The notes beneath the pieces are model-generated. The model ran no database searches, was not told where the DNA came from, and was given only the letters and a program-made list of their open reading frames with translations. Both the position numbers and the translations under genes were made by a program. Positions 747 to 47,228 of a DNA stretch of 64,000 bases are shown piece after piece (the stretch's first letter is position 1; each line of letters starts with the position of its first letter). Source of the stretch: Synechococcales cyanobacterium OTE_75_metabat_409 (GTDB lineage Bacteria > Cyanobacteriota > Cyanobacteriia > Cyanobacteriales > Chamaesiphonaceae); assembly GCA_031378405.1 (NCBI GenBank), contig JANNEH010000124.1, positions 186 to 64,185 on the forward strand. The letters run 5' to 3'.

Positions 747-1832
747 TCAAATCTTTTTAGTTTGATCGAAACCCAAAGGCAAATAGCCCTGCACCAAAAG
801 ATCTTTGCCGATCGATCTAAAACTCACCCGCTCCAATTCCAAAGCCCCAGTCATTTGGGTAATCCCTAGATCCCCCACCGGCTGCGGCGCATTTATCCCA
901 CCCACAATCTTGGGTGCCACAAAAGCCAATACCTTTTGCACCGTACCTTCCCTGATCGCTGCCGCCGCCAAAGTGCCACCACATTCCCATAGCACTGATA
1001 AACAACCTCGATCGAACAACTCCTGCATTACTACCGTCGGACTAGGGCTCTCGGTTACCAAAACTTCTACATTGCAGGCCATCAATTTTTTTTGCAACTC
1101 AACATTGGCCTGCTTACCAGTCACTACCAACGTCGCTGCTAGTTTCGTATCCCAGAGCTGAGCTGATTCTGGCAAATTAAAACTCGGACTCAATACCACT
1201 CGCAAAGGATTGGGTCGATCAAGATGATGACTAGTCATCAACGGATCATCCCGACGCAGAGTATTACCACCAGTCACAATTGCGTCACAAGTCGATCGCA
1301 GATAATGCACATATTCTCGCGACTCCGGGCTACTCACCCAAGCACTATGACCAGTATCCGTAGCAATCTTTCCATCCAAAGTCATCGCATATTTCAAAAT
1401 ACCAAAAGGTCGCTGGTGTAACATGCGATGAGTAAAAGCCTCATTTAGCTCCTCACAGGCAGCAGCTTCTATCCCAGTCACCACCTCAACTCCTGCCTGT
1501 CGTAGTTTCTCTAAACCACTCCCCGCTACCAGCGGATTAGGATCGACCATGCCCACTACTACTCGCCGAATACCCGCCGCAATTACTGCATCACTACAAG
1601 GCGGGGTACGCCCATAGTGGTTACAGGGTTCTAAACTCACATAAATAGTTGCTCCCTGCGCTAATGCTCCAGCTTGCCGTAAGGCAAACACTTCAGCATG
1701 TGGCTGACCAGCGCCGGGATGAAAGCTCTCTCCAATGATTGAGCCATCCCTAACTACCACTGCACCCACCATCGGGTTGGGCGCAGTGCGACCCTCAGCC
1801 CTGCGAGCTAGAGCGATACAGCGCTGCATCAT
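747..1832 (-). CDS. ribD: bifunctional riboflavin biosynthesis protein RibD (pyrimidine deaminase / uracil reductase)
   Basis: Cytidine-deaminase zinc motifs HAEV...PCNHYGRTPPC are followed by the reductase domain (KYAMTLDGKIA...). The start is trimmed to the ATG-ATG at 1832 because the 455-aa track ORF runs through tRNA-Cys. The GTG at 1859 is an alternative start. Confidence 0.9.
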   Translation of the reverse strand: MMQRCIALARRAEGRTAPNPMVGAVVVRDGSIIGESFHPGAGQPHAEVFALRQAGALAQGATIYVSLEPCNHYGRTPPCSDAVIAAGIRRVVVGMVDPNPLVAGSGLEKLRQAGVEVVTGIEAAACEELNEAFTHRMLHQRPFGILKYAMTLDGKIATDTGHSAWVSSPESREYVHYLRSTCDAIVTGGNTLRRDDPLMTSHHLDRPNPLRVVLSPSFNLPESAQLWDTKLAATLVVTGKQANVELQKKLMACNVEVLVTESPSPTVVMQELFDRGCLSVLWECGGTLAAAAIREGTVQKVLAFVAPKIVGGINAPQPVGDLGITQMTGALELERVSFRSIGKDLLVQGYLPLGFDQTKKI

Positions 1833-1889
1833 CTCTTGGTCTAGGGAAAAGTCGCTCACGGAAATATCCCAAATTGGGTTTGAAAATAA

Positions 1890-1960
<71 letters not shown>

Positions 1961-2088
1961 GCCGAGGACTCAGTATAACAAGTTTTAGCCAATTTGACCA
2001 AATATTTGCACCAAATTTTGGCTTGATCATTTTGTGCTGGAGACAATAGAGGCTAAAATTCGATCGAACCTCCAGTGCCCTGCCGATT

Positions 2089-2487
2089 ATGACCAGAGAA
2101 ATTATCACCACCAATCAAGCCCCAGCCCCCGTAGGGCCTTACAACCAAGCGATCGCTGCCAGCGGCAAAATGCTGTTTGTCTCGGGGCAGATTTCGATCG
2201 ATCCCAGCAGCAATCAGTTAGTCCACACTGGCGATGTGGTGCAGCAGACCGAGCTGGTGATGGCCAACCTCGCTGCTATTTTAAAACAGGCCGGAGCCTC
2301 TTGGCCGGATGTGGTCAAAACCGGGGTGTTTCTGAAAGATATGAACGATTTTGCAGCCATGAATGAGGTCTATAGCAAATACTTTGATGCTGCTACCGCC
2401 CCCGCCCGCGCCTGCGTAGAAGTAGCCCGACTGCCCAAAGATGTCTTGGTAGAAATCGACTGTATTGCTGTGATTCCTGATGCCTGA
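2089..2487 (+). CDS. ridA: RidA/YjgF family reactive-intermediate deaminase
   Basis: The 132-aa protein ([12 protein letters not shown]...LFVSGQI...[19 protein letters not shown]) shows the YjgF/L-PSP signature. Confidence 0.85.
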
Positions 2488-8365: not shown

Positions 8366-8830
8366 GTGAGGCTAATTTGTATGACAATTTCGCCACTGGT
8401 TAAGAATTCTCATTCTGTTACTGTCCTAGACTTGAAGAGCGGCAAACGGAATCCTGTGATCGGGGATTTTGATTTTCCAGAGGGGTTGCCTACGGCAGAT
8501 GAGTTACCTTGTTCGGATGCTAAGTTTCAGCTTTACAAGTTGATTGAGGGTGAGTATGTGTTACAGAGTGCCGGTCAGAAGCCTTATTGGATGCCAGAAA
8601 TTGGTTTGGCAATCGGTGCAGAGAAGCGAGCTTATGGTGCTATGGAGCGGGAATGGCTTTATTGGTATGACGAAAATGAGGCGAGGTATCCTACTCCGAC
8701 GGAAAGAGCTGAGGCTGTATCTCAACAGTTTCAAAATGAAGCGGCTGCAAGGATTGCTGTTGGACAAGAAAATAATGTTTTGCGAGAAAAGTTGAGGGAG
8801 TTGGGGATAGATCCAGATTCGATTTCCTGA
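8366..8830 (+). CDS. hypothetical protein resembling only the C-terminal half and tail of Uma2 endonucleases (likely a remnant)
   Basis: It ends in ...NNVLREKLRELGIDPDSIS, like the tail of the Uma2 at 27571..28284 (ALRAKLRELGLL). The PD-(D/E)xK core is absent. Codon third positions are G/T-rich. Confidence 0.4.
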   Translation: MRLICMTISPLVKNSHSVTVLDLKSGKRNPVIGDFDFPEGLPTADELPCSDAKFQLYKLIEGEYVLQSAGQKPYWMPEIGLAIGAEKRAYGAMEREWLYWYDENEARYPTPTERAEAVSQQFQNEAAARIAVGQENNVLREKLRELGIDPDSIS

Positions 8831-27570: not shown

Positions 27571-28284
27571 ATGGTTTCCCAAATTCCCAAACCAGCAGTC
27601 ATCTACCCAGATAGCGATGGTCAGCCGATGTCAGATAATACCTTGCAGTTTAGCTGGATTGTCAAAATCAAAGAAAATCTAGAAATTCTGTTTGCAGATA
27701 ACCCAGATGTGTTTGTAGCCGGTGATTTACTGTGGTATCCGGTAGAGGGCAACAACAAGATTTGTCGTGCCCCCGATGCCATGGTGGCTTTTGGCCGACC
27801 CAAAGGATACCGAGGTTCTTATATGCAGTGGATTGAAGGCAACATTGCGCCCCAAGTCGTATTTGAGATCTTGTCGCCAGGGAATCGATTGGCTGAGATG
27901 GCCGCCAAGTTTGATTTCTACAATAAGTATGGGGTGGAAGAATACTATATCTATGATCCAGATCGGGTGGATTTTACTGGCTGGTTGAGACAAAATGGCA
28001 TTTTACAAGGAATTGGCAATATTGCTGGTTGGGTTAGCCCTCGACTTGATGTGAGATTTGAGCTGGGCGATGAGCTAGAAATTTATACTCCCGACAATGA
28101 TTTGTTTTTATCGGTTATGGAGATCAACCAGCAGAAAAAACAAGCTCAACTCGAAACCCAGCAAGCAAAATTAGAGACACAGCAAGCAAAGCTAGAAACC
28201 CAGCAAGAACGCGATCGAGCTGATGCCGCAGAACAACAAAATGAAGCACTGAGGGCAAAGTTGCGAGAATTGGGATTGTTATGA
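27571..28284 (+). CDS. Uma2 (DUF820) family PD-(D/E)xK endonuclease
   Basis: PDAMV...VFEILSPGN...K...YGVEEYYIYDP core, with a Gln-rich repeat tail. Confidence 0.85.
   Translation: MVSQIPKPAVIYPDSDGQPMSDNTLQFSWIVKIKENLEILFADNPDVFVAGDLLWYPVEGNNKICRAPDAMVAFGRPKGYRGSYMQWIEGNIAPQVVFEILSPGNRLAEMAAKFDFYNKYGVEEYYIYDPDRVDFTGWLRQNGILQGIGNIAGWVSPRLDVRFELGDELEIYTPDNDLFLSVMEINQQKKQAQLETQQAKLETQQAKLETQQERDRADAAEQQNEALRAKLRELGLL
28141..28203. repeat. 3 x 21-bp in-frame tandem repeat (QA[QK]LETQ) in the Uma2 tail
   Basis: caagctcaactcgaaacccag / caagcaaaattagagacacag / caagcaaagctagaaacccag. Confidence 0.8.
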
Positions 28285-28843: not shown

Positions 28844-29206
28844 ATGCAAATTACTGTGGACGTTCCTGATGACATGATGAAGCAGTTGGAGCTTTTGCAA
28901 GATGAGCTGCCGCAGATTTTAGCGCTGGGATTGCAGCAGATACAAGCAAATCCTACTCAGGGTTTTTCTGGTTTAACTGAGGTATTGGAGTTTTTAGCAC
29001 AGTTGCCATCACCCCAAGAAACTTTGGCTTTGAGGTTATCAGATAAGTTGCAGGCGGAGATTGAGGAGCTGCTGCAGAAGAATAAGATGGAGGGTCTGAA
29101 CCATGGGGAACAGCGTCTTTGGCAACAGTATGAGTTTGTGGAGCATTTGGTAAGAATGGCTAAGGCTCGGGCTTTAGTAAAAATTAAGGAAGCCGCATCA
29201 GCATGA
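28844..29206 (+). CDS. hypothetical protein translationally coupled to the HNH endonuclease
   Basis: 120 aa. Its stop overlaps the HNH start (ATGA). Confidence 0.55.
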   Translation: MQITVDVPDDMMKQLELLQDELPQILALGLQQIQANPTQGFSGLTEVLEFLAQLPSPQETLALRLSDKLQAEIEELLQKNKMEGLNHGEQRLWQQYEFVEHLVRMAKARALVKIKEAASA

Positions 29207-29628
29207 GCAAAACCTATATTCCAGCTAGTTTGCGTCGGCTGGTGGTGGAAAGGGCACAGAATTGCTGTGAGTATTGTTTGATTCCTCAAGAAATTGTATT
29301 GGCGAAGCATCAGGTTGATCATGTAATTGCTGAAAAGCATGGCGGTGAAACGGTTGCAGAGAATTTGGCATTGTCGTGTACTTTGTGTAATCAAGCCAAG
29401 GGAAGCGACATTGCTTCGATCGATCCAGAAACAGTAGATATCGAGCGACTCTACCATCCACGTCTTCATAGATGGTCAGAGCATTTTCGGGTTTTGGAAG
29501 ATTCTGGGATAATTGAGCCTTTGACGGGGATTGGTCGATCGACAGTAAATTTATTGCAGATGAATCGGGTAGAGTATTTGGCTGCCCGATCGATTTTGTC
29601 TCAGGCTGGAATCTTAGGCGATTCCTAA
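29203..29628 (+). CDS. HNH endonuclease
   Basis: CCEYC...HQVDHVIAEKHGG...ENLALSCTLCNQAKG, the HNH zinc-finger pattern. Confidence 0.85.
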   Translation: MSKTYIPASLRRLVVERAQNCCEYCLIPQEIVLAKHQVDHVIAEKHGGETVAENLALSCTLCNQAKGSDIASIDPETVDIERLYHPRLHRWSEHFRVLEDSGIIEPLTGIGRSTVNLLQMNRVEYLAARSILSQAGILGDS

Positions 29629-29858
29629 CAGACTGTCAGTTGGTGGCATGGTTGCAAGGATTTAAGATTTGGTAATGGCATTCTGTACTGTTTTTGGCTG
29701 CTTGGTGGAACATCGATCGAATATGTGGGTCTTATTTGATTTAGAACCCGCTTGGTTGGTACTAAATAAAGAAATGTTACACTTCCACCATTTTTCTATG
29801 GGGCAAGCTTTATATTTAGTCGTGCTAGATTAATTTATTTCTAAGTTGCTTAATTTCT

Positions 29859-30824
29859 ATGCAGTTTTTTGAATCTCGGTTGCCTTGGAATGACTTGCCG
29901 GTTATGTCTACGGGTGATTTACATGAATGGATTTCTGATGGTTTGCCGGAGCATTTGCGGTTGCATTTGCCGAAGTCGATCGAGGTTGTGTTTGATGTGG
30001 GTGTGGCGCAGCGGCGGGTGATCGATTTTGTGGAGGCTTTGCCGGTGTTTTTGGCGGGGGAGTTTGGGCGGTGGCAAGAGCGGCTGGGGCGCTTTGTGGA
30101 GTTGGGTTTGTTGACTGAGCCGGAGATTCGGCATTTTATGACGGTGCAGCGGGATGTGCAGCCGTGGATTTTGTATTATTCGTTGGATGGTGGTTTGGGT
30201 CATGAGTCGGTTAATACCGATCGAAGTTTGCCGATGGGTTTGATTCCTTGTTCGGCGGTGAAGCATCATGGGGTGGCTTGGCGGCGATCGGCTGATGGGG
30301 TGGAGCGGGTTTGGTTGGCTTCGGCGCGGGCTAAGGGGGCGGTGGATTGGGATTGGATGGCGGATGTGGGGCATGAGGTTTGTCATGCTTCGTTTGCGCC
30401 GGTGCCTTTGTGGGCGCAGCCTAGAAGGGAAGTAACTACAGATTTTTCAGATATACAGGGTATTGACGAATTAAAAATTGAACATTTTCAAAAAGTTGCT
30501 TATACAAATCCCGAAATTGTTACAACTATTATTCGAGGGGAATCCAGAAGTAATGAAACAGGCTTACCTAATTTGGAAACATGGAAAGAGTTGGAAGCCT
30601 ATTTAATAGTTTGTCATCTTTTTTACCCAAGCATAGGATTTAACTTGGATTTTAAATTGTTATCGGCAAAAACAAGACTTTCAGATAAAAATAATATTGA
30701 TCCGAATTCTGCTTTCAAAATAGCATCTTATTGTATAAAAGTCATCTTAATGCAGAGAGGGTATTTATATGATTCAGTTGAATTCTATAAAAAGAACACA
30801 ATCAAGAACGCAATACATCAGTAA
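29859..30824 (+). CDS. hypothetical protein with an HExxH motif; ORF is a compositional chimera
   Basis: 321-aa ORF with GHEVCH at residues 174-179. The DNA is G/T-rich up to about 30420 and very AT-rich afterwards. Confidence 0.5.
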   Translation: MQFFESRLPWNDLPVMSTGDLHEWISDGLPEHLRLHLPKSIEVVFDVGVAQRRVIDFVEALPVFLAGEFGRWQERLGRFVELGLLTEPEIRHFMTVQRDVQPWILYYSLDGGLGHESVNTDRSLPMGLIPCSAVKHHGVAWRRSADGVERVWLASARAKGAVDWDWMADVGHEVCHASFAPVPLWAQPRREVTTDFSDIQGIDELKIEHFQKVAYTNPEIVTTIIRGESRSNETGLPNLETWKELEAYLIVCHLFYPSIGFNLDFKLLSAKTRLSDKNNIDPNSAFKIASYCIKVILMQRGYLYDSVEFYKKNTIKNAIHQ

Positions 30825-30858
30825 ATATTGAATTAAATAAAACCGTCAGCAAAAAGCA

Positions 30859-31623
30859 ATGATTAAAACTCCAAAGATTATTACTAAAACAAAAAAGAGA
30901 CTAAAAATTCTTGTCCCATGGACAAAAGAAAGAATACTTCAAAATATTGATGCTAAACGCATCAATATCTGGGCTATCCGTGGACTATTTGCAGTTTTAA
31001 TAACAATAATATTAGGTTTCCTATTTAAATTAGGTTATAGAGATAGTTGGGAAATAGGTTCTTTAATATGGTCAGCAATATATCTTATCTGTTTCGTATT
31101 AGAAGCTCCAAAAGCACCAAATAGTTCAAAGAATGTACTTCTTAATGGCTTGGCTGGAATATTTACTGTGCCCATTGCACTTTTGATTTTCTCAACAATA
31201 TTAATTAGAACGAATCTCATATCCAACGAAATCTTTGTGAACTCAATTAAAAACATATTAAATTTTGCCCCGGTCACAGGAATTATAGGATTTGCTTTTT
31301 TGGATTTGTTTCTATTTCTTATGTGGAATGACGAACTCAGAAAGCTTAATAGAAATAGTAATCCAAATGTGAACTTAGAAAATTCTTTTAAAAAGCTAAG
31401 ATTAAAATCAAAGTATTTTTTTATTTTTGTTGACATCCCATCTTTTGTGTCCGTCATTATTTTTACATTGTATTACCTCATTTTAGTTGTCTATTTTAAT
31501 TCAATAAAACATACTTCTACAGACTCTCTCACCTCATTTTTTGCTGGAGCAACAGCCCTTCAATTAATAGCAGCAAATATAACATTTGCTTTTATTGATT
31601 CATATAAAAAAGAGGGCTTATAA
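30859..31623 (+). CDS. polytopic membrane protein (about 6 TM), unknown family
   Basis: 254 aa encoded by AT-rich DNA, with a Lys-rich N-terminus. Its stop directly abuts the next start. Confidence 0.6.
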   Translation: MIKTPKIITKTKKRLKILVPWTKERILQNIDAKRINIWAIRGLFAVLITIILGFLFKLGYRDSWEIGSLIWSAIYLICFVLEAPKAPNSSKNVLLNGLAGIFTVPIALLIFSTILIRTNLISNEIFVNSIKNILNFAPVTGIIGFAFLDLFLFLMWNDELRKLNRNSNPNVNLENSFKKLRLKSKYFFIFVDIPSFVSVIIFTLYYLILVVYFNSIKHTSTDSLTSFFAGATALQLIAANITFAFIDSYKKEGL

Positions 31624-32463
31624 ATGCAAAAACAAAATTCAATTGAATTTGGTGATAACTATAAAAAGTTTGTTAATTTCCGAGCTGTTCAACCAGATCG
31701 AGAACTGCGTTTATCTAAATCAATAGCTTCTCAATCAAAGCTAGCGCCTTTTTACAACCAAGTAACAATGCTGGATATTGGTAGTTCTGATGGCAAAATC
31801 ATTCCATACATCATAAATGAGTTATTATCAATGTATGCTAATTTGAGTTTTGATGTTGTTGCTATCGAACCAGATCCTTATCCTTTCCAAATTTTAAAAA
31901 ATCTTAACTTATCAGAAAAAGTGAATTTTAATGCAAAACATATTAATTTTATGGATTTTCTGGAATCAGTAAAATCGACTTGTAATAAATTTGATTTGGT
32001 GATTGGTACACACATTTTATATCATTTTAGTGAGTGGGAAAAGTTAATTCAAGATATTATTAATGTAATCAATACAAACGGAAAATTAATTTTAACAATT
32101 GATTCAAAACAATCGCCAATTTATTACAGAAAAGATGATATAGCTAGATTGATGAAAGATTCTGACCTAGTGAACTTTTATGGGCAGTACTGCTTTGCAG
32201 AGGACTTAGAGTGCCTGCTTCGTAAATGCTCTCTAGAGTTTACGAAGCAGCACATATCATCTTTTTTAGAAATCAAGCAATCTGAGGATATTAACGAATG
32301 CCAATTAGCAGAGTCGATTTCTTTTTTGCATAGAGTGGATATAAAATTACTTTGTGAAAAGGAAAATGTCAGATCTTTATTTGAAGATTTTGTAATTCAA
32401 AAAGGAGAAATTACATTTTATAAAATACCTTGGGAGGAAGTGATATTTACAATTAACAAATGA
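31624..32463 (+). CDS. class I SAM-dependent methyltransferase (paralog 1)
   Basis: Motif I MLDIGSSDGK, acidic beta-2 end AIEPD, and FDLVIGTHILYH. 279 aa. Confidence 0.7.
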   Translation: MQKQNSIEFGDNYKKFVNFRAVQPDRELRLSKSIASQSKLAPFYNQVTMLDIGSSDGKIIPYIINELLSMYANLSFDVVAIEPDPYPFQILKNLNLSEKVNFNAKHINFMDFLESVKSTCNKFDLVIGTHILYHFSEWEKLIQDIINVINTNGKLILTIDSKQSPIYYRKDDIARLMKDSDLVNFYGQYCFAEDLECLLRKCSLEFTKQHISSFLEIKQSEDINECQLAESISFLHRVDIKLLCEKENVRSLFEDFVIQKGEITFYKIPWEEVIFTINK

Positions 32464-32505
32464 CTTTCGAGAAGCAATAAGCAAACTAAATGGAAATAAT
32501 GACTT

Positions 32506-33345
32506 ATGACTTTAACTGAACTTAAACTGAGTAAAAAAATATTAGATAATACGTGGGACACATATCCATTCAATATCTTTGAAACTAATCCAAATGCATA
32601 CAAGATTTTTTTAAAGCATTTAAAATCAATCCCTTTTGAGATATCTACTCTTAAAAATGATTGTATTAATATGATAATTGAAAAAGGATTATCTAAAATA
32701 AAGTGGTTGGATATAGGAGCAGGTTTAGGCGACCCTATATTCCCTTTAATAAAATTACTTGATAAGCAAGGGATCTCCGTCGAATATCATTACCTAGAGC
32801 CTTCAAAAAGAGCACGTAAGATTTTTTGTAATGATATAAAACTTTATTCCTATCAAAGAATGACAGTTACTTATAATACGACAACATGGGAAGACTATGA
32901 ACCACAAGAATCTTTCGACTTGATTACTTTCTTTCATTCAGCTTATTACATTAAAAATTGGTCAATGCAATCACCTAATTCTCTCACCAAAGCCATTGAC
33001 TGTACTAATCCAGGTGGATTTATTTACTTCTCTAATTTATCTGAGGAAGCACATTACAACAAAATAGTCAGCAGTATTGAAGATGACTTATTTTTCAAGA
33101 AGCCGCCAATTACGGCTGAAAATATTATGGCACTCTGTTCTCATCTGAATTTACCTAAATCAGTCAACCGGAACATTAACTTGTATTTGGAAATCAATGA
33201 AATCAAGAAGAATAACTATTCTGAATACAAAGATGTTGTTGAATTCTTAACTGACAAGCCATTTACAGAAGAACTATCTGATTTAATCAGTAATTTTTCT
33301 CATAGTATGTTGTTTCCTATATCAACTATCTCTATTGGCCTGTAG
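32506..33345 (+). CDS. class I SAM-dependent methyltransferase (paralog 2)
   Basis: Motif I WLDIGAGLGD, YLEPS, and FDLITFFHSAYY. Also 279 aa, with the same motif order as paralog 1. Confidence 0.7.
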   Translation: MTLTELKLSKKILDNTWDTYPFNIFETNPNAYKIFLKHLKSIPFEISTLKNDCINMIIEKGLSKIKWLDIGAGLGDPIFPLIKLLDKQGISVEYHYLEPSKRARKIFCNDIKLYSYQRMTVTYNTTTWEDYEPQESFDLITFFHSAYYIKNWSMQSPNSLTKAIDCTNPGGFIYFSNLSEEAHYNKIVSSIEDDLFFKKPPITAENIMALCSHLNLPKSVNRNINLYLEINEIKKNNYSEYKDVVEFLTDKPFTEELSDLISNFSHSMLFPISTISIGL

Positions 33346-33411
33346 CAGGAATTACCTAATAACTGGATTGGTAAGTTATATTTAATACATAATAGCCAAA
33401 AGGTTAGAAAT

Positions 33412-34575
33412 ATGAAAACAAAAATTTTCGTCTCAGCAACAATAACTTGCATATCACTAATTGCTCTTGCTTCATGCAACCCACAGAGTAATAGCAAAAA
33501 TAGCACTGACAAAATTTTGTTGGGAGGAGTCTTTGCCCTCACCGGTTCTGCCGCCGATTGGGGACAAGCCGAAAAAAATGGAATGCAGATGGCGATCGAT
33601 CAAGCGAACACAACTGGTGGCATCAACGGCAAACAGATCGAGCTAGTCAGTGAAGATGCCCAAGCCGAAAAAGTTGATGATAATGTTAGTGCCTTCAAAA
33701 AACTCACTGACATCAAAAAAGTCCCTGTTGTCATTGGTCCTACCTGGGACGATGCCGCTGTCGCCATCGCTCCCCTCGCCGATGCTAGCAAAACCCTAGT
33801 CATTGGTGCCGATATCAGTAGCGGCGTAGAAGCGAAAAAAGATTATCCCTACTTCTTTTCGATCTACACCCCCGAAACGATCGAAATGCAAGCCCTCAAC
33901 GACTACCTGGTTAAAAACAACCTGAAAAAAGTCAGCATCGTCTTCAACCAAGACCCCTTCAGCAGCCAATGGCGCGAATCCTTCGCCCGTGCCGCCACCG
34001 CCAAAGGAGTCACCATCACCTCCGAATACCCCATCAGCGATGCCAACTCCAAAGACTTCCGCACCCAAATCACCAAACTAAAAACCCAAAAACCCGATGC
34101 CATCTACATCGAATTTGCCGACCAAGCCACCAAAGGCACCTTCATGCGCCAAGCCAAAGAACTCGGACTCACCTCCAAAATAGTCAGCTCCAGCACCTCC
34201 GAAACCCAAAGCAACCTCGACCAATACGGCACCTACATCGAAGGACTCACCTACACCTTTCCCCGTAGCACCCCCGCCCAAGATGCCTTCAATGCCGCAT
34301 TCAAAGCTAAATATAACGAATTGCCCAAAGCCCCCTCCGCCGTTTATGCCTACGATGCCACCAACCTAGTGATCGCCGCCATGAAAGAAGGAGCCACTAC
34401 CGGCGAAGCCATCCGCGCCAACATCTTGGCCAGAAAAGACTATGCTGGTGCATCGTCCAATCACATCTCTTTCAGCCCCACCGGTCGAGTCCAGTGGCCA
34501 GCCAGCAGCTTCACCATCAAAAAAGTCACCGGCAAAAAATTTGTGGAAGCAGCAAATGTTCCCGTAGCAAAATAA
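33412..34575 (+). CDS. ABC transporter substrate-binding lipoprotein, LivJ/Peripla_BP_6 type
   Basis: Lipobox LIALASC, then LGGVFALTGSAADWG...VIGPTWDDAA, typical of branched-chain-amino-acid / amide-type binding proteins. Confidence 0.8.
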   Translation: MKTKIFVSATITCISLIALASCNPQSNSKNSTDKILLGGVFALTGSAADWGQAEKNGMQMAIDQANTTGGINGKQIELVSEDAQAEKVDDNVSAFKKLTDIKKVPVVIGPTWDDAAVAIAPLADASKTLVIGADISSGVEAKKDYPYFFSIYTPETIEMQALNDYLVKNNLKKVSIVFNQDPFSSQWRESFARAATAKGVTITSEYPISDANSKDFRTQITKLKTQKPDAIYIEFADQATKGTFMRQAKELGLTSKIVSSSTSETQSNLDQYGTYIEGLTYTFPRSTPAQDAFNAAFKAKYNELPKAPSAVYAYDATNLVIAAMKEGATTGEAIRANILARKDYAGASSNHISFSPTGRVQWPASSFTIKKVTGKKFVEAANVPVAK

Positions 34576-34578
34576 ACC

Positions 34579-35445
34579 ATGCTGCAAGTAATAGCCAACG
34601 CCTTTATTTCTGGTGCCATCTACGCCACGATCTCCGCTGGCTTCAACCTCGTTTATAGCGTCCATCGCTTCTTCTACCTCGCCCACGGCAGCGTCCTGCT
34701 CGTGGGTGGCTTCGCCTTCTACTTCGCCTTCGAGACCTACCACCTCCATCCCGCGATCGCCATCCTCCTCGCCATCGGAGCCGCAACCATCCTGGCCATG
34801 CTCAACGAAATACTCATTCATCGTCCCCTGCGCCAGCGCCAAGCTAACAACTTCTCACTTTTTTTAGCATCTACCGCCTCTCTCAGCATTGTGCAAGGAC
34901 TATTGCTGTACTTCAACAGCTCCAGAACCTTTACTTACCAATGGCCACTAAACGTTATCGAAATTGCCACAGTTCGCATCACCCTCACCCAATGTTGGAT
35001 CATTGCTAGCGCCTGCCTTATTTTCAGCATCCTCTGGTGGATTATGAACAAAACCACATTCGGCAAAAGCCTCCAAGCGATCGCCGACTCCCCCACCCTT
35101 GCCAGGGCGATCGGCCTCCCCGTCTCTACTCTCTACCTGCAAACCACCATCCTCAGTGCCATCTTAGCCGCCGCTGGTGGCATTCTCATGTCCTTAGAGC
35201 GCGACCTGCGCTTCGATATGGGCATGGAAGCTATTCTCAAAGGCATCATCGCCTCCATCATTGGCGGCATTCCCAACGTCCCTGCTGCGCTCCTCGGCGG
35301 CTTCCTGCTGGGCTTAATCGAAAACCTGGCAGCTTGGTTTCTGCCATCTAACTACAAAACCACCATCAGCAGTATTGTATTAATTGTCTTTCTGTTATTT
35401 CGTCCCACTGGCATCATCGGCAGCAAATTCTTCCCCAATCGCTAA
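34579..35445 (+). CDS. ABC transporter permease, LivH type
   Basis: 288 aa, polytopic, with N-terminal ...NAFISGAIYATISAGFNLVYS, typical of LivH. Confidence 0.8.
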   Translation: MLQVIANAFISGAIYATISAGFNLVYSVHRFFYLAHGSVLLVGGFAFYFAFETYHLHPAIAILLAIGAATILAMLNEILIHRPLRQRQANNFSLFLASTASLSIVQGLLLYFNSSRTFTYQWPLNVIEIATVRITLTQCWIIASACLIFSILWWIMNKTTFGKSLQAIADSPTLARAIGLPVSTLYLQTTILSAILAAAGGILMSLERDLRFDMGMEAILKGIIASIIGGIPNVPAALLGGFLLGLIENLAAWFLPSNYKTTISSIVLIVFLLFRPTGIIGSKFFPNR

Positions 35446-35446
35446 C

Positions 35447-37093
35447 ATGCTCGAATACCTAGCGAATCTCGTAGTACTCATCAGCATTTACTGGATCTTA
35501 GCCACCAGCCTTGATCTAGCGATTGGCTACTGCGGTATTTTTAGTATCACTCAAGCCGCCTTTTATGGTCTAGGTGCTTACGCCAGCGCCCTTCTAAGCC
35601 TTAATCTACCCATTGTTTTCCCCTTCAACCTGTTTGGTAGCGTAGTAATCACCTCTACCATTGCCTACCTTAGTAGCCATATCCTCCTGCGCTTGCGCCA
35701 AGACTATTTAGCCCTCGCTACCTTAGCATTCGGCATTATTATTCAAGAATGCTTCCGCAACGCCGAATTTTTAACCGGCGGCAGTCGCGGACTATCCGGC
35801 ATCCCCTCTATTCAAATTTTCGGCTTTTCCTTCCAAGATCCCGTCAGTGCCGCAGTACTCTCTTTAGTCATATCAGGCATAGTAGTTTTTTGTCTACACC
35901 GACTAGAACAATCTCAATTCGGCATCTTTCTCCGGGGCATCGATAACGATGAAATTTCCTTACAAACTTTGGGTACAGATACCTTCCGGCTTAAAATCAC
36001 CGCCTTCAACATTGCCGCGATCGGGGCAGCTATTGCCGGTAGCCTCTATGCCCACTACTCCATGTCTCTCGACCCCAATCGATTCTCGATCGACGAATCA
36101 TTTCTGATTATTTCGGCGATCGCCCTGGGTGGTAAAAGATCTTTACTCGGCACTATCTTTGGCGTAATGATGTTGATCTTAATTCCCGAAGCCCTGCGCT
36201 TCCTGCCTCTTTCTAGTTATAAATTGGCTGCTCTCCGGGACGTAATTTTCTCAATTATCCTGATCCTCATCCTCATTTATCGCCCTCAAGGACTATTTGC
36301 TGCTCAGATCAAGCCATTTGCCACCAAATTTTCTTCACCCACTTCCATCAAATCACCACATCTTCAAACATCCAACCCAAAAGCCTTGCTAGAGATCCAG
36401 CACCTCTACCGCAAAATCAACAGCGACTTCTCAATTGATATTCAAAATGTCCAGCTAGCCACCGGCCAAATTTATGGCATATTTGGCGCTAACGGTTCTG
36501 GTAAATCGATGTTTTTCAACATTCTCACTGGCCTGATCCCAGCCGATCAAGCCATTGCCAGCTTTTCGGGGAAGCCCATCCGCCAATTCACCCCTGATCG
36601 CATTGCTAATTTAGGCATTGCCCGCACCTTTCAATCAGTTCGTCTCCACCCAGAACTTACCATCCTCGAAAATCTCAGCCTCATTCAACCCACCAGTATT
36701 TTTCAGTTAATTTGGAATGCCATCTCCCCAAGAGCCACAGTATTACACCTAAATATTAGCTATGCTCGTGAATTATTAGAACGCATTAATCTCTCGGCCT
36801 ACGCGAACCAACCAGCCAGTGACCTCAGCTTCGGTCAACAAAAAGCGATCGAAATCATCCGTGCCATTTCTCGTGATCCGCAGCTTCTGTTACTGGATGA
36901 ACCAATGTCTGGTTTATCACGACAAATCCGCCCTATATTAATTGCAGAATTGCGCCGACTCCGACAGACTGGCACTACTATTGTCATTATTGAACACGAT
37001 CAAGATTTTTTAGCCAGCATCTGTGATCGCTGGATTCAGATCAAAGATGGCAGCATCATCCAACAAAGCGATTCACCACCCTATGCTGAATAA
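35447..37093 (+). CDS. fused LivM-type permease / LivG-type ABC ATPase
   Basis: The N-terminal ~285 aa are polytopic (SLDLAIGYCGIFSITQAAFYGLGAY). The C-terminal half has Walker A GANGSGKS, signature LSFGQQKAIE and Walker B LLLLDEP. The start is trimmed to the ATG at 35447, 1 nt after the livH stop. Confidence 0.8.
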   Translation: MLEYLANLVVLISIYWILATSLDLAIGYCGIFSITQAAFYGLGAYASALLSLNLPIVFPFNLFGSVVITSTIAYLSSHILLRLRQDYLALATLAFGIIIQECFRNAEFLTGGSRGLSGIPSIQIFGFSFQDPVSAAVLSLVISGIVVFCLHRLEQSQFGIFLRGIDNDEISLQTLGTDTFRLKITAFNIAAIGAAIAGSLYAHYSMSLDPNRFSIDESFLIISAIALGGKRSLLGTIFGVMMLILIPEALRFLPLSSYKLAALRDVIFSIILILILIYRPQGLFAAQIKPFATKFSSPTSIKSPHLQTSNPKALLEIQHLYRKINSDFSIDIQNVQLATGQIYGIFGANGSGKSMFFNILTGLIPADQAIASFSGKPIRQFTPDRIANLGIARTFQSVRLHPELTILENLSLIQPTSIFQLIWNAISPRATVLHLNISYARELLERINLSAYANQPASDLSFGQQKAIEIIRAISRDPQLLLLDEPMSGLSRQIRPILIAELRRLRQTGTTIVIIEHDQDFLASICDRWIQIKDGSIIQQSDSPPYAE

Positions 37094-37796
37094 TTATTCA
37101 AATTCACCACTATTAATTGTTAACAATATCTGCGCTGGGTATGGTCAAGGCGACATTATTAAAGATATCTCTTTCCAAATTGCCACCAATACCATCACCC
37201 TGATCCTTGGCGACAATGGCTCCGGCAAATCCACCCTCTTCAAAGTTCTCTCTGGCAATCTTCGTCCTCGCACCGGCCAAATTCTCTTAGATGGCATTGA
37301 TATCACCAATCTAGAACCATCGATCGCCCGTAAATTTGGCATCGCCTATACTCCTCAAGCCGAAAACATCTTTCCTAGCCTCACCGTCAACGATAACCTA
37401 GAGCTAGGTGGCACCACCCTAGGCAATAAACAAAAAATCAAACAGCAAAAAGAGCGAATCTATCAGGAGTTTCCCTTACTAGCTACCAAGCAAAATAAAC
37501 TAGCCGGGGAAATGTCTGGCGGCGAACGCCAATATCTAGGTATTGCCTGCGCCCTCATGTCTTGCCCCAAAGTACTTTTACTAGATGAACCCAGCCATGG
37601 ACTGAGTACAGAGTCGATCGCCGCCGTCTTAGAAATTCTCACTCTCTTACCCAACCAGGGCTATGCCGTCTGTATTATTGAACACAATCAAAATTTCTAT
37701 CAGCAGCTTCTAGACAACCATCGTTCCTCATCAAGAAGCTATCAAATGAATGAAGGTCAATTACTCAGTGATGCGGATGAAATCAGTAAATCATAA
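37083..37796 (+). CDS. ABC transporter ATP-binding protein, LivF type
   Basis: Walker A GDNGSGKST, signature MSGGERQYL, Walker B VLLLDEP. The ATG at 37083 overlaps the previous gene by 11 nt. Confidence 0.85.
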   Translation: MLNNYSNSPLLIVNNICAGYGQGDIIKDISFQIATNTITLILGDNGSGKSTLFKVLSGNLRPRTGQILLDGIDITNLEPSIARKFGIAYTPQAENIFPSLTVNDNLELGGTTLGNKQKIKQQKERIYQEFPLLATKQNKLAGEMSGGERQYLGIACALMSCPKVLLLDEPSHGLSTESIAAVLEILTLLPNQGYAVCIIEHNQNFYQQLLDNHRSSSRSYQMNEGQLLSDADEISKS

Positions 37797-37925
37797 TCAA
37801 TCTGTGGAAATTTTTCCTGTAAACCACTCCTTCATTACAACATGGCTATAGAAGGCTCTCTTTAGTCAGTGCTCTTGTCCTCGACTATGAGCTAAACTGA
37901 GATCATAGCCAGATAGACTTATCCT

Positions 37926-38351
37926 ATGTTCATCGAAAAAGTTATTTGGAATATTGAAACAATCGTAACGGCCTATGAGCTTTCCAGACGAGCTGTTCCA
38001 GGGTTTCAGCGCATAGTCAAAAGATTTCAGAATGGCAAGCTCAAGATTGCAATCTTTGGAGCTGGAGGTACTGGGAAAACAACTTTAGGCAATATGTTAG
38101 CTGGCAAAGCCGGTGCCAGCAGCATTTTGAATCCTTATCAAGAATCTATTTCGGTCGATCGAATCAAGCTAGCTGATATTCCCGGCTCCGTAATAATCGT
38201 TCCCGGCCAAGAACCACGTCAAAATAAATGGGATGAAGTTTTCTCAGAAATTATTGATGGTCAGATCAACCTAATTATCAATGTAGTGTCTTATGGCTAT
38301 CATTCTTTCGAGGGCATTAGTTATCAACAACATCTACTTTATCAAGCTTGA
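37926..38351 (+). CDS. P-loop GTPase, N-terminal portion (G1-G3), ending at an in-frame TGA
   Basis: G1 GAGGTGKT (nt 38058-38081) and a G3-like ADIPG / VPGQE. The reading frame is the same as that of the next ORF. Confidence 0.55.
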   Translation: MFIEKVIWNIETIVTAYELSRRAVPGFQRIVKRFQNGKLKIAIFGAGGTGKTTLGNMLAGKAGASSILNPYQESISVDRIKLADIPGSVIIVPGQEPRQNKWDEVFSEIIDGQINLIINVVSYGYHSFEGISYQQHLLYQA

Positions 38352-39227
38352 ATGTCCGAAAGAAATTTTGCTGCTGCTTATACCGAAAATCGACGAATCC
38401 GAGAAATCGAGGCTTTCCGGCCATTAGAAAGCCATATCAAAATAGCCAAGCGCGAAAAAATATTAATGTTGACATTGGTGACAAAGCAAGATCTATGGTG
38501 GCAAAGTCGGGAGCAAGTAAAAGAACATTACCAAAATGGAGAATACAGCCAATTCATTAACAACATTTTATTGAAAAAAGGATCAGATAGTTTTCAGCAT
38601 GAATATCTCTATGAAACCAAAGAGCTGCATGATGCCAATGCTTTCATATCTCTTTTGAAAGATTGTACAAAAGAAAAAATACGTATAACCAAAGAAATTC
38701 GCAATTCTCACTATCAGCTTTATACAATCCTGTTGACTGGACTTTTTACGGCAATTTTATCTTACAATTTTTATCGTTCATCTCTGTCAAGACCGATACA
38801 ATTAACTTCAGCACATCTCCTGTTTTCAGTAGCTTTAGTTATCTTGCTTTTCAGTTTTCCACTTTTGTACCTACCAACTAAACCAAAGAGCTTTTTAGCG
38901 GTTTCTAATCATTTCCGGAAAAGACTAGTGATTTTCTGTTGGTCAGTTTTTGGGATGTGTTTTTTATCATTTCTTACTATTCTAGGATCATCTATGTATG
39001 CTAGTATGTTGATACTAATTACATTTATTTTGACTTTTGTGTTTATCCGAAGATTACAAAATATGTACAGTGAAATGAAAGTAATTGATTACAACTTGGC
39101 TAAAGTCATCCGATCGACTTCACAGTTTAGAGAGCATATTGCAAGTGTTTTTGTTACAAAGATCAAATTAGAAGTAACACTGACAACAGCAGAAGATGCA
39201 TTAGAAAACCCTCGCTTGTATTTCTAA
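38352..39227 (+). CDS. continuation of the GTPase (G4 TKQD) plus a four-TM C-terminal domain
   Basis: The ATG follows the TGA at 38349-38351 directly. LVTKQD lies at nt 38481-38492, followed by four hydrophobic helices. The DNA is AT-rich from about 38560. Confidence 0.55.
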   Translation: MSERNFAAAYTENRRIREIEAFRPLESHIKIAKREKILMLTLVTKQDLWWQSREQVKEHYQNGEYSQFINNILLKKGSDSFQHEYLYETKELHDANAFISLLKDCTKEKIRITKEIRNSHYQLYTILLTGLFTAILSYNFYRSSLSRPIQLTSAHLLFSVALVILLFSFPLLYLPTKPKSFLAVSNHFRKRLVIFCWSVFGMCFLSFLTILGSSMYASMLILITFILTFVFIRRLQNMYSEMKVIDYNLAKVIRSTSQFREHIASVFVTKIKLEVTLTTAEDALENPRLYF

Positions 39228-39250: not shown

Positions 39251-40597
39251 CTACTTGCATTGCAATTGCAACTTACTAATCCACTGGAATCGGAAATAAT
39301 AAGTTATCGCCGCCACCTGTACCCCCAAACATTGCCCCATCCATAAACCTACCGCTCCCCATTGTAAATAAAATCCCCATAAATAAGCAAACACCAACCC
39401 CACACACCAAAAAGCTATAAAACCCAACAGCATCGGTGTTCGGACATCTTGCAAACCCCGTAAAGCCCCAACCACAGTTGTTTGAATACCATCACCAATC
39501 TGCATTACCCCAGCTATCCGCAAAAGCTGAATGGCTAAATCAATTGTTTCCTGGTTTTTCGGAATATCTAAGTTTAAATATAAACCAATGATCGATCGCG
39601 GAAACCACAACATGACCATCGCTGTTATCGACATATATGAAATACTAAGGCATAGTGATACTTTGCTTGATCTCCTCACTCCTAGCCAATCCTTTTGTCC
39701 CAAATACTGTCCCACCCGCACCGTCGTCGCCATTGAGATACCCAACGGCACCATAAAAGTAATTACTGTAGTTTGAAACACAATTTGGTTAGCCGCCAAA
39801 GCCGCTGCCCCAAAAGATCCCATTAAATATGTCACGGTAGTAAACAATCCAACTTCTAGAGCAAAACCTACTGCCAGTGGCCAACCCATTTGTAGAATAC
39901 GGCGAAGAATAGGTACATTCAAGGGCATTCGCCAAGTGACAGAGCCCTTACCGGGTAAATGCCAGATTAAATGAACAATTAAAATGATCAGCATTAGCCA
40001 TTGACTAACGACACTCGCGATCGCCAATCCAGCCAAACCCAGAGCCGGAAAACCAAAATTACCAAAGCCCAAAGTATAGTTGCCAATACAATTAGCGATC
40101 GTCCCTACAACTATTGCAATCGTAACCACCTGTGGAGCCGAAACGATCGTCACTACACTCTTGAGCATGGCAAAAGTCAAGGCAGGCAAAAAGCCCCCAG
40201 CCATAATTCGCAGGTAAACGCGGGCTTCCGCCACTACTTCAGGCTGTTGGCCAACCATTAAATCTGGTAAAAACCACACGAGCAGAGTGCCGCCGATCGA
40301 CACCAACCCTGCTAGCCACCACCCCTGCTGAGTGAGAGATGTGGAGAGCGATCGATCGCCAGCCCCCTGAGCGGCAGCCAATAAAGGCGTAAGACCCAAG
40401 ACTAAACCCGAAGAAACAATTAGCACCATCATCAATAGCGATGCTGCTAAGCCGCCACCGGCCAAGATAGTTGGACCCAACCAGCCCATCATCAGGGTAT
40501 CCACAAAACCTGTGGCTGATTGTGCTAATTGGGCACCAGCTAAAGGAATTGCAAGTTTAATAAATTCCCTGGCTTCTGCTTTGAGAGTAACAGCCAT
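39251..40597 (-). CDS. MATE family efflux transporter
   Basis: 448 aa, 12 TM, with N-terminal EFIKLAIPLAGAQLAQSATGFVDTLMMG, typical of NorM/DinF-type MATE proteins. Confidence 0.85.
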   Translation of the reverse strand: MAVTLKAEAREFIKLAIPLAGAQLAQSATGFVDTLMMGWLGPTILAGGGLAASLLMMVLIVSSGLVLGLTPLLAAAQGAGDRSLSTSLTQQGWWLAGLVSIGGTLLVWFLPDLMVGQQPEVVAEARVYLRIMAGGFLPALTFAMLKSVVTIVSAPQVVTIAIVVGTIANCIGNYTLGFGNFGFPALGLAGLAIASVVSQWLMLIILIVHLIWHLPGKGSVTWRMPLNVPILRRILQMGWPLAVGFALEVGLFTTVTYLMGSFGAAALAANQIVFQTTVITFMVPLGISMATTVRVGQYLGQKDWLGVRRSSKVSLCLSISYMSITAMVMLWFPRSIIGLYLNLDIPKNQETIDLAIQLLRIAGVMQIGDGIQTTVVGALRGLQDVRTPMLLGFIAFWCVGLVFAYLWGFYLQWGAVGLWMGQCLGVQVAAITYYFRFQWISKLQLQCK

Positions 40598-42085: not shown

Positions 42086-43410
<1,325 letters not shown>

Positions 43411-46284: not shown

Positions 46285-47055
46285 CTATCGATCGCCTCTC
46301 TCCCCACCACCCCTCTCACCATCATCACCGTCCGGCAACTGCAACCTTTGTGGTTCTCTTTGAGGTAATTCTACCAACGGCAACTCCATCAACTCCAAAG
46401 CTGGCTCCAAAACCTGAGGAACTGCCACTTCCTGAGCAGTCAACGGCAACATAATCGGCTTCTCAACCCAATGACTGCTAATCGGCAACGTATTTTCCAA
46501 ATCATCCAACGGACGAGGAATCACCATCACCGCACTCAGCTCCCCAATCCGCTCCGCCTCAATCATCCCCGCTTCCACCGCGATCGCCACATCCGTCACC
46601 GCTCCCCGAATCACGATTGTACACAAACCCGCCCCAATTTTTTCGTAGGCCGCCACTTCAATATCTGCCGCCTTCATCATAATATCTGCCGCACCCACCA
46701 AAGCCACAAATCCCCTGGTTTCTAGCAGCCCGATCGCCGTATTTGCCAACTTATTGCGGCCATTCCCCCGCGTCAAAGCTGCCAACCTACTGCCGATCGG
46801 CAACACCGCCTCCAAATTCGGCAAAGGCCGAGGAATAATCGTACTGGAAATAGTCTGACCAAATTTTTCTGCCGTATCTAAACCTACCTCGATCGCAATC
46901 CGCACATTGGCGATCGTCCCCCGTACTACCGCATTACAGTAGCCATTACCAATCTTTTCATAGCCTACCAAAGTAACACCAGAAGATTTCAGCATCATAT
47001 CGGCAATACCCACGATCGCCGGAAAACTCTGGGTAGAAATAATGCCCAAAGCCAT
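46285..47055 (-). CDS. ccmO: carboxysome shell protein CcmO (tandem BMC domains)
   Basis: Two BMC domains (ALGIISTQSFPAIVGIADMMLK..., AIGLLETRGFVALVGAADIMMK...) plus a charged C-terminal tail. Confidence 0.9.
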   Translation of the reverse strand: MALGIISTQSFPAIVGIADMMLKSSGVTLVGYEKIGNGYCNAVVRGTIANVRIAIEVGLDTAEKFGQTISSTIIPRPLPNLEAVLPIGSRLAALTRGNGRNKLANTAIGLLETRGFVALVGAADIMMKAADIEVAAYEKIGAGLCTIVIRGAVTDVAIAVEAGMIEAERIGELSAVMVIPRPLDDLENTLPISSHWVEKPIMLPLTAQEVAVPQVLEPALELMELPLVELPQREPQRLQLPDGDDGERGGGERGDR

Positions 47056-47228
47056 GTCATTAAAATTATCTGGAGATTGCTGTTTAGCTGGAAGCACCTA
47101 TTACCTCGGTAATATCAATGACCAAAAGTATCAATGGCCAAGTCGCCAAGAAAAACGCCGACATAACCGCGCTTGCACCAATCATAACCCCTCGATCGAC
47201 AATCCCGCTGATTGCCCTTCATCCCCAA

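Follow-up and report, generated by a model that had tools for sequence, protein, structure and literature searches.

The window analyzed here, a 64,000-nt stretch of contig JANNEH010000124.1 from the Synechococcales cyanobacterium OTE_75_metabat_409, carries at positions 29859-39227 (all coordinates are window-based) an array of ten plus-strand open reading frames (ORFs) in which an importer of the ATP-binding cassette (ABC) type is encoded alongside an HExxH protein, a membrane protein, two S-adenosylmethionine (SAM) methyltransferases, and a broken GTPase. The genes are designated g1-g8, from the HExxH protein through the LivF-type ATPase, while the GTPase remnants are designated g9a and g9b. 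A preliminary description of this DNA, made from its letters alone, had listed the same ten same-strand ORFs, and all are present at the positions it gave. Computed with the gene-caller ATG starts of g7 (35447) and g8 (37083), the intergenic spacings from g1 to g9b are 34, 0, 42, 66, 3, 1, -11 (an overlap), 129, and 0 nt; the range of 0-130 nt first reported thus stands for the spacings of 0 to 129 nt, and fails for g7 and g8, which overlap by 11 nt. Packing of g1-g8 is operon-like, with gaps of -11 to 66 nt. As for gene content, the HExxH protein was correctly named (g1 carries HEVCH at residues 172-176), six hydrophobic segments are found in the proposed six-transmembrane protein (g2), and Pfam domain matches together with a lipobox uphold a Liv-type importer containing a LivM-LivG fusion. 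The preliminary description is largely accurate overall, and is corrected below with regard to the paralogy of the methyltransferases, the GTPase with a transmembrane tail, and the local origin of a compositional mosaic.

Comparison with related contigs, which were retrieved by exact or near-exact look-ups and from metagenome assemblies and are numbered L001, L006, L007, and so on, revealed that the array recurs. Specifically, the order g1, membrane protein, one or more methyltransferases, substrate-binding protein (SBP), LivH, LivM-LivG fusion, and LivF recurs, with differing flanks, on five or more independent metagenome contigs (L001/L002, L007, L018/L019, L017, and L028+L029). Because this same-order co-localization occurs on independent contigs with different flanks, the adjacency of the genes is not accidental, and the finding that was to count against a functional association, homologs that never co-localize elsewhere, did not materialize. 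The 12.5-kb L001 locus contains g1-g4, the SBP, LivH, LivMG, and LivF genes, and then an intact gene for a 278-aa GTPase and a separate gene for a 233-aa membrane protein. Arrays in L007 and L018/L019, which have different upstream flanks, consist of g1, g2, a single g3-type methyltransferase gene, and the four Liv genes, and lack both g4 and the GTPase; L017 and L028+L029 represent further versions. At the same chromosomal site as that in the window (Uma2 ... MATE-gltX), a deletion in L006 runs from the 3' end of g1 through most of g8; the last 98 codons of LivF survive there, together with intact GTPase and membrane-protein genes (L006 10001-11121).

Beyond these loci the array appears to be scarce. 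A metagenome scan anchored on the SBP returned only distant SBPs (24-41% identity) and no further arrays, tblastn of g1 and the SBP against PLSDB gave no matches, and a search of viral contigs yielded no g1 relatives and, for g3, a single generic methyltransferase match at 29% identity. A plasmid or phage origin was rejected on the basis of the missing PLSDB matches and viral-contig g1 relatives. Neither g1 nor g2 has a match in Pfam, NCBIfam, PADLOC, or PHROGs, and nothing relevant was found in the literature on this gene combination. The statement that the array matches no described system therefore stands for the pathways, biosynthetic clusters, defense systems, and curated families searched. 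The best-supported reading of these data is that the array constitutes an accessory operon, rare and subject to recombination, in a small group of HIP1-rich cyanobacteria.

The most distinctive property of the array is the uneven distribution of divergence along it. Similarity of the window to L001 and L006 in blastn comparisons ends at 30422 and, with L001, resumes at 32554. As delimited by blastn, identity, and synonymous divergence (dS), the hypervariable segment relative to L001 (30420..32553, plus strand) thus takes in the g1 C-terminus, g2, g3, and the first ~16 codons of g4. Between the window and L001, amino acid identity is 93% for the g1 N-terminus, 39% for the g1 C-terminus, 30% for g2, 43% for g3, and 75% for g4, and then 93% for the SBP, 90% for LivH, 84% for LivMG, and 91% for LivF. 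The corresponding values for L001 and L017 are 86% (g1 C-terminus), 37% (g2), 46% (g3), 53% (g4), 93% (SBP), 97% (LivH), and 98% for both LivMG and LivF, the g1 N-terminus having no value in this comparison. Among all available variants, pairwise identity is 51-84% (median 58%) for g4 and 41-63% (median 49%) for g3; the eight SBP variants are 91-100% identical (median 93%), as are LivF proteins at 90-100% (median 96%) within their cluster. Synonymous divergence follows the same course: in the window versus L001, dS rises from 0.15 for the g1 N-terminus to 0.35 for the SBP, 0.55 for LivH/LivMG, 0.64 for LivF, and 0.89 for g4, and is saturated for g2 and g3, while between L001 and L017 it is 0.05-0.07 for LivH/LivMG and 1.6 for g4. 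The frame genes have ratios of nonsynonymous to synonymous divergence (dN/dS) of 0.08-0.27, indicative of purifying selection, and g1-g8 are all intact. For g2 and g3, dN/dS is 0.35-0.45 with saturated dS, values that denote old alleles and for which positive selection is not demonstrable. The breakpoint at 30422 coincides with a switch in base composition inside g1, and the left edge of the cassette is a recombination breakpoint. Taken together, the alignments indicate that the cassette has been exchanged by recombination among deeply diverged alleles. A second recombination mosaic is marked at the 3' end of the array by the contrast between L007 and L018, the arrays of which are 95% identical in DNA, with the SBP, LivH, and g1 at 99-100% but LivMG at 88% and LivF at 79%.

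Base composition had been reported to change abruptly along the array, and it does so, mainly as an effect on the third codon position, where the switches are sharper. The first 187 codons of g1 end almost purely in G or T (in 150-nt bins, the third-position fractions of A and C, A3 and C3, are 0.02-0.12 and 0.00-0.04, respectively). At ~30420, within the g1 ORF, composition switches to an AT-rich block (GC 0.29-0.31) that extends through g2, g3, and g4; genes g5-g8 are then C-ending (C3 0.35-0.55, G3 0.07-0.12), and the tail of the array has a GC content of 0.34-0.40. These blocks also differ in their content of HIP1, an element (GCGATCGC) present in 26 copies in the 64 kb versus ~1 expected, an abundance that marks the window as cyanobacterial DNA. 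In the window, L001, and L017, its core, CGATCG, exceeds expectation 12-25-fold where the blocks are G/T-rich or C-rich (2-13 observed versus 0.1-0.9 expected, copy numbers being 7-13 for the Liv and G/T-rich blocks and 1-3 for the shorter g1 segments), and the AT-rich tail is likewise enriched (2-3 versus 0.16-0.18 expected). The AT-rich central cassette contains no CGATCG in any of the four arrays examined. The g1 C-terminus, g2, g3, and g4 are thus an AT-rich, HIP1-free, swappable cassette of 30-58% identity inside a frame conserved at 90-98%.

Assembly of the array from several sources had been proposed to explain its composition. The succession of G/T-rich, AT-rich, and C-rich blocks is also seen in the orthologous arrays L001, L017, and L029, and more weakly in L007, and any assembly must therefore be older than those arrays. 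The mosaic is a heritable property of the array family and was not assembled in this genome, and only the central AT-rich block carries independent evidence of another gene pool; the proposal is retained for the separate history of that block and set aside for a local origin of the rest. Strong GC skew at the third codon position (GC3 skew) is also present elsewhere in the window, at +0.69 in 8366-8830 and +0.65 in 46285-47097. A G/T-ending bias like that of the g1 N-terminus characterizes four unrelated regions, 8366-8830 (+), 46285-47097 (-), 39251-40597 (-), and 28844-29628 (+), with GC3 skews of +0.44 to +0.69 and C3 down to 0.06, and ilvC (42170-43195) is among the window genes that lean toward C-ending codons. 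Across the window the sign of the skew is unrelated to gene orientation, and replication strand was therefore rejected as the cause of the G/T-rich and C-rich blocks.

The conserved part of the array is dominated by the importer genes. The first, g5 (33412..34575, plus strand), encodes a HAAT-family substrate-binding lipoprotein (Peripla_BP_6, PF13458, E 1.3e-54, 186.6 bits; lipobox LASC) with a dN/dS of 0.10. It is followed by g6 (34579..35445, plus strand), a LivH-type permease (BPD_transp_2, PF02653, E 2e-34) 90% identical to that of L001, and by g7 (35447..37093, plus strand), a 548-aa LivM-LivG fusion of permease and ATPase with BPD_transp_2 and ABC_tran domains. This fusion is kept in all arrays at 547-550 aa, the 548-aa form is a database record, and a TTG start placed at 35384 by the ORF finder is probably an over-extension. 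Lastly, g8 (37083..37796, plus strand) encodes a LivF-type ATPase (ABC_tran, PF00005, E 4.5e-33). The best NCBIfam models are LivH/UrtB for g6, LivM and LivG for g7, and UrtE/LivF for g8, yet the scores obtained are far below the equivalog cut-offs (78 versus 477 for the LivJ type, 51 versus 493 for UrtA, and 176 versus 286 for UrtE), and g5-g8 are accordingly predicted to form a HAAT-family ABC importer that is not an equivalog of Liv or Urt. As in other systems of the HAAT family (TC 3.A.1.4), namely E. coli Liv (LivJ/K-HMGF) and the cyanobacterial Nat (N-I) and Urt urea transporters, a Peripla_BP_6 lipoprotein, two BPD_transp_2 permeases, and two ATPases are encoded in canonical order; unlike the operons for those systems, the array has LivM fused to LivG and includes g1 and the methyltransferases. 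The best PDB match of g5 is 4gnr (E 5e-27), and its closest solved relatives are amino-acid binders. In E. coli LivJ, residues S79, A100, T102, Y202, and E226 bind the amino acid through its alpha-amino and alpha-carboxylate groups; in a weak LivJ/LivK alignment (22% identity) they align to Asp, Asp, Ser, Asp, and Ser of g5, which hints weakly at a cationic ligand.

Within the variable cassette, g2 (30859..31623, plus strand) encodes a 254-aa membrane protein in which hydropathy analysis identifies six hydrophobic segments, and which has the conserved motifs VDIP...FT.YY and FF.GA.SLQLI..NI.F..D. It abuts g3 (31624..32463, plus strand), the gene for a 279-aa class I SAM methyltransferase (Methyltransf_23, PF13489, 32.2 bits versus a cut-off of 27), and homologs of the two are fused in frame in L017 (505 aa) and L028 (552 aa). 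Fusion in two relatives is Rosetta-stone evidence that g2 and g3 act together, and implies that g2 may serve as the membrane anchor or partner of g3, the pair being a predicted membrane-tethered methyltransferase resembling histamine N-methyltransferase (HNMT). This resemblance comes from the g3 family profile, which matches HNMT (1jqd) at E 5.7e-8 over residues 40-218 (~180 residues) at low identity. With the class I motif LDIGSSDG, invariant in its family, g3 is similar to HNMT in overall length; it differs in working with, or being fused to, a six-segment membrane domain that HNMT lacks. The second 279-aa class I SAM methyltransferase is encoded by g4 (32506..33345, plus strand; Methyltransf_23, 38 bits, same cut-off); its family has an invariant LDIGAGLG and no PDB relative below E 0.07. 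A word-indexed search of 5.8 billion clusters found only 4 clusters of g3 homologs, and g4 homologs make up 8 clusters, always adjoining the SBP gene where the contig reaches that far. Gene g4 is optional, being absent from L007, L018, and L019. Although g3 and g4 had been taken for twin paralogs, and both do score above the Methyltransf_23 gathering threshold, no paralogy is seen by BLASTP (E 0.21), and the hhalign result (probability 94.9%, 20% identity) points to only remote homology.

Loci for glycine betaine synthesis in halophilic cyanobacteria contain a GSMT/SDMT methyltransferase pair beside an ABC transporter. The array is similar to these in having two adjacent SAM methyltransferases of ~270-280 aa beside an ABC importer; it is dissimilar in that the importer is of the HAAT type, not ProVWX/BCCT, one methyltransferase is predicted to be membrane-tethered, and both are hypervariable. 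The betaine analogy was rejected, as Pfam and NCBIfam gave only generic or sub-threshold methyltransferase models, none from the betaine pathway.

At the head of the array, g1 (29859..30824, plus strand) encodes a 321-aa cytoplasmic HExxH...E protein without hydrophobic segments by hydropathy. Its N-terminal 187 codons are conserved and its C-terminal third is AT-rich and divergent. A word-indexed search found 7 homologs, and an exhaustive HMMER search found 97 cluster representatives among 1.84 billion, 85 of them at E<=1e-10. Alignment of 56 sequences shows H172, H176, and E219 to be invariant and E173, D169, C131, H137, Y215, and E228 to be at least 90% conserved. An AlphaFold2 model built with this alignment has a pLDDT of 92.5 and a pTM of 0.92, superseding an earlier run on 7 sequences (pLDDT 52), and orders a beta-sheet, the HExxH helix (166-178), and a helix (207-226) bearing Y215 and E219. 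Foldseek searches with the model gave no neighbor (best PDB E 0.58 with TM at most 0.2; best BFVD E 0.11), and PDB profile searches returned only unrelated proteins (E >= 0.07); the structural check proposed for g1 thus places it outside known families, at least as far as PDB and BFVD are concerned. Similarities to gluzincin-type metallohydrolases are the invariant H172, H176, and E219, the near-invariant E173, and the order of helices. Differences are the lack of a sequence or structural match to the peptidase families and solved structures searched, and an additional conserved Cys131/His137 pair. Consistent with both, g1 is a putative gluzincin-like metallohydrolase of an undescribed family, its metal site being predicted from the motif and the model, and is probably a new protein family or fold.

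Members of the g1 family are not confined to the array. Nine loci outside the array clade were considered, in Scytonema, Calothrix, Xenococcus, an uncultured cyanobacterium, Pyrinomonadaceae, Methylococcaceae, Acidimicrobiia, and two metagenome contigs. In eight of the nine, belonging to Cyanobacteria, Acidobacteriota, Gammaproteobacteria, Actinomycetota, and the two unassigned metagenome contigs, the g1 homolog adjoins the ATPase gene of an SsuA/TauA-type ABC importer; in the ninth (L009) its neighbor is an HTH_3 regulator gene, and no importer is encoded close by. Components of these importers are 53-66% identical across phyla, and variable extra genes are often inserted in the operons, encoding, among others, a TIR-like PF10137 protein, an NMT1-OmpA fusion, or a 302-aa protein. 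The array resembles these SsuA/TauA-type (NitT/TauT) operons in placing the g1 family beside an SBP-dependent ABC importer and variable extra genes. The latter, which are uncharacterized, differ in having an NMT1/SsuA SBP, one BPD_transp_1 permease, and one ATPase, in that the g1 homolog follows the ATPase gene and closes the operon instead of coming first (and is on the opposite strand in one locus), and in having TIR-like or OmpA-anchored SBP-like proteins as extras where the array has methyltransferases. The combination of g1, an SBP-dependent importer, and variable enzymes is a recurring theme. The TIR-like protein (~390 aa) is encoded between the SBP and permease genes at L005 7110-8294, L008 1881-3062, and L016 7310-8476, loci that comprise an Acidimicrobiia metagenome-assembled genome and two metagenome contigs, one of them high in GC (65%); its N-terminal domain is a CAP12/Pycsar-type TIR (PF10137, E 9e-23), an odd constituent for an importer operon. 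The operons of Xenococcus and Calothrix (L012 7036-8598 and L013 4553-6148) encode a 520-531-aa protein in which a weak NMT1/SBP-like region is followed, at the C-terminus, by an OmpA domain of the peptidoglycan-binding type.

What the array does can be approached through its gene content. The interpretation we tentatively place ahead, while holding it to be somewhat less than an even bet, is that the operon imports an amine or amino-acid-like solute and, in a coupled process on the inner side of the membrane, hydrolyzes and methylates it. In such a scheme, the SBP, with its predicted pocket acidic and not LivJ-like, would capture the solute and the HAAT importer would carry it in; g1 would hydrolyze it at the inner face of the membrane, and g2-g3, plus g4 where present, would methylate it, with different cassette alleles perhaps giving rise to strain-specific methylation chemistry. 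Import and methylation of an amino-acid-like molecule had been among the first suggestions for the array, and the HNMT-like character of g3 and the g2-g3 fusion lend it modest support. Several observations weigh against coupled uptake and modification. Substrate choice should lie with the SBP, yet this is the most conserved component and the enzymes are the most variable, which would not be expected of a simple catabolic or salvage pathway. The array is dispensable and is decaying differently in different strains. A promoter and terminator scan of the array gave counts at shuffle level and was uninformative as to a single transcript. Moreover, the acidic pocket derives from the 22%-identity LivJ alignment and the corresponding binding residues, the metal site and hydrolase activity of g1 from motif and secondary-structure order alone, with no homology to a characterized zincin found, and the direction of import followed by modification from gene content only.

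The pattern of variation could instead point to a conflict or recognition locus, in which the conserved importer and g1 would form a sensing or delivery frame and the hypervariable cassette a specificity or effector module, its ancient alleles kept by balancing or diversifying selection; possible roles would include self-protection against strain-specific toxins, modification of allelochemicals, and methylation of the surface or envelope that alters recognition by phage or kin. We consider this unlikely, though it is the main rival. Very high allelic diversity of g2, g3, and g4 in frames that are nearly identical, cassette swapping by recombination, the foreign character of the cassette (AT-rich and devoid of the HIP1 core), the position of the island among Uma2, HNH, XisH/XisI, and NYN genes, and the patchy, sometimes deleted state of the array all fit such a locus, as does the CAP12/Pycsar-type TIR-like protein found in three SsuA-type operons with a g1 homolog, though this PF10137 fold is a domain match alone, any NADase or effector activity would be hypothetical, and a metabolic role is equally possible. 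The same hypervariability, typical of conflict and recognition loci, is what remains of an early suggestion that the array is a defense island, which gains no profile support: g1-g4 have no matches in PADLOC (PADLOC-DB 2.0) or PHROGs. Also counting against a conflict role, relatives were not found on viral contigs or plasmids, dN/dS of g2 and g3 stays below 1, and SBP-dependent importers are not known to be components of defense systems. A wider version of the idea, quite improbable in our estimation, takes g1 to be an unrecognized, novel-fold zincin-like family that partners SBP-dependent importers in at least four phyla with interchangeable cargo enzymes (TIR-like proteins in the SsuA-type operons, recombining membrane-tethered methyltransferase alleles in the HAAT-type arrays); it would constitute an uptake-coupled modification or recognition device with cassette polymorphism under balancing selection, whereby strains import one extracellular amine-like compound, a signal or toxin, and convert it differently in inter-strain or phage conflict.

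Alternatively, g2-g3, with or without g4, could be a membrane lipid or envelope methyltransferase acting, for example, on an amino-lipid or lipid-linked intermediate, with the importer supplying a head-group precursor and the solute itself not accepting the methyl group. Loci for envelope modification typically take the form of AT-rich, hypervariable clusters between conserved genes, and the fusion of a six-segment membrane domain to a methyltransferase and the conserved polar motifs in that domain are in keeping with such an activity. Similarity to PmtA, CFA synthase, OlsG, or BtaB was not found in Pfam, NCBIfam, and PDB searches, however, and among solved structures g3 is closest to a soluble small-molecule N-methyltransferase. 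We consider a lipid or envelope role rather improbable. The remaining explanation, that g1, the methyltransferases, the Liv transporter, and the GTPase pair are parked together in a decaying island with no joint function, could account for the pseudogenized GTPase pair in the window and its absence from L007-type arrays, the loss from L006 of the array between the 3' end of g1 and the closing part of g8, the sharp composition differences between blocks, and the optional g4. It is nevertheless very improbable and, for g1-g8, largely refuted: all arrays seen share the g1, g2, g3, and Liv gene order in spite of unlike flanks and 70-80% frame divergence, two relatives encode g2 and g3 as a single protein, the association of g1 homologs with ABC importers extends over several phyla, and g1-g8 are intact and under purifying selection.

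Should the array prove to be an uptake-plus-modification unit, it would point to a new substrate class for HAAT-type importers in cyanobacteria, and would provide the first functional context for a ~100-cluster HExxH family with a confident predicted fold and no solved relative. If it is merely a strain-variable solute-scavenging operon, the gain in annotation is modest. Within a known kind of operon, for substrate uptake by an ABC importer with accessory enzymes, the array contains one probably new protein family or fold and displays an unusual polymorphism of the cassette. It is unusual for a metabolic-looking operon to keep its enzymes, and not its transporter, as deeply divergent recombining alleles, a pattern normally seen in envelope-antigen or conflict loci. 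With a soluble SBP, a small zinc-enzyme candidate, and natural g2-g3 fusions, the array offers a testable system.

The region upstream of g1 (29629..29858, plus strand) is non-coding, and its last ~170 nt are kept in related arrays. It is alignable across the window, L001, L006, L007, and L018, blastn similarity to L006 starts within it at 29685, and it is the probable promoter or leader of g1. A riboswitch or leader RNA was dropped as a candidate, given that no Rfam family matched at gathering threshold or E<=1 and that RNAalifold, applied to five such regions, returned only a weak fold (-10.3 kcal/mol) with an unfavorable covariation term. Two overlapping ORFs were also rejected as genes: 29919-30386 (-), a P/H/R-rich by-product of the T-poor strand opposite the G/T-rich g1 segment, and 33969-34268 (+), a Pro/His/Arg-rich alternative frame of the G-poor SBP gene and thus a compositional artefact.

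Downstream of g8, the ORF g9a (37926..38351, plus strand) encodes the N-terminal fragment (G1-G3) of a pseudogenized small GTPase of the TRAFAC class, with a P-loop (GAGGTGKT) and a weak MMR_HSR1 match. Blastp and DNA alignment show that g9b (38352..39227, plus strand) joins the middle part of the GTPase (G4, TKQD) to the body of a membrane protein. Relatives possess an intact GTPase (278 aa in L001, 285 aa in L006) and a separate 225-233-aa membrane protein. The orthologs in L001 and L006 contain GAGGTGKT, VPGQ, and TKQD in one ORF, and in a three-way DNA alignment the window's TGA at 38349-38351, which parts G1-G3 from G4, stands where both have a GGA (Gly) codon. Residues 1-86 of g9b match the L001 GTPase and residues 88-291 the L001 membrane protein in blastp comparisons, and a deletion of roughly 230-250 nt at 38610/38611 has taken out the C-terminal end of the GTPase gene with its stop codon, the spacer, and the first part of the gene that follows. 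Given this nonsense codon and deletion, the GTPase with a transmembrane tail is an artefact of the decay of a two-gene pair; of the original account of a GTPase with a four-transmembrane tail split by an in-frame stop, the TGA is real and the tail is a separate gene that became fused. With dN/dS versus the orthologs still 0.09-0.15, the pair appears to have been inactivated recently in the window. Since it is absent from L007-type arrays and kept in L006 despite the array deletion, we treat it as an optional neighboring module. The membrane-protein partner has no PADLOC match, and the intact GTPase ortholog has only a marginal one (E 6e-4 to 1e-3).

Genes flanking the array include some of types associated with defense. 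A Uma2-family protein (27571-28284, plus strand) matches the PADLOC candidate PDC-S03 (E 6e-10) and an HNH protein (29203-29628, plus strand) matches PtuB-like Septu models (E 1e-10); both lie outside the array, and no PDC-S03 or Septu partner genes were seen next to them. In L001 only two remnants of the HNH gene upstream of g1 are left (residues 1-22 and 91-141; L001 704-921 versus window 29203-29628), and the 120-aa partner encoded upstream of it (window 28844-29206) is intact at 91% identity. A pairing of a 119-aa protein with an HNH protein occurs beside both the window and L018 arrays and had raised the idea of a tandem array or mobile element; this link was rejected, as identity between the HNH proteins is only 36% and their small partners are unrelated, and the pairs are regarded as a coincidence of common cyanobacterial selfish genes. 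The L018 array also adjoins fragments of a different HAAT transporter (27-30% identity), which lie upstream with Uma2, XisI, and XisH genes between them. Elsewhere in the window, a tRNA gene at 1890-1960 on the minus strand (Rfam, 62 bits) falls inside a mechanically called 455-aa ORF (747-2114, minus strand) with a strong bias toward G/T-ending codons (GC3 skew +0.46), at least part of which is probably spurious.

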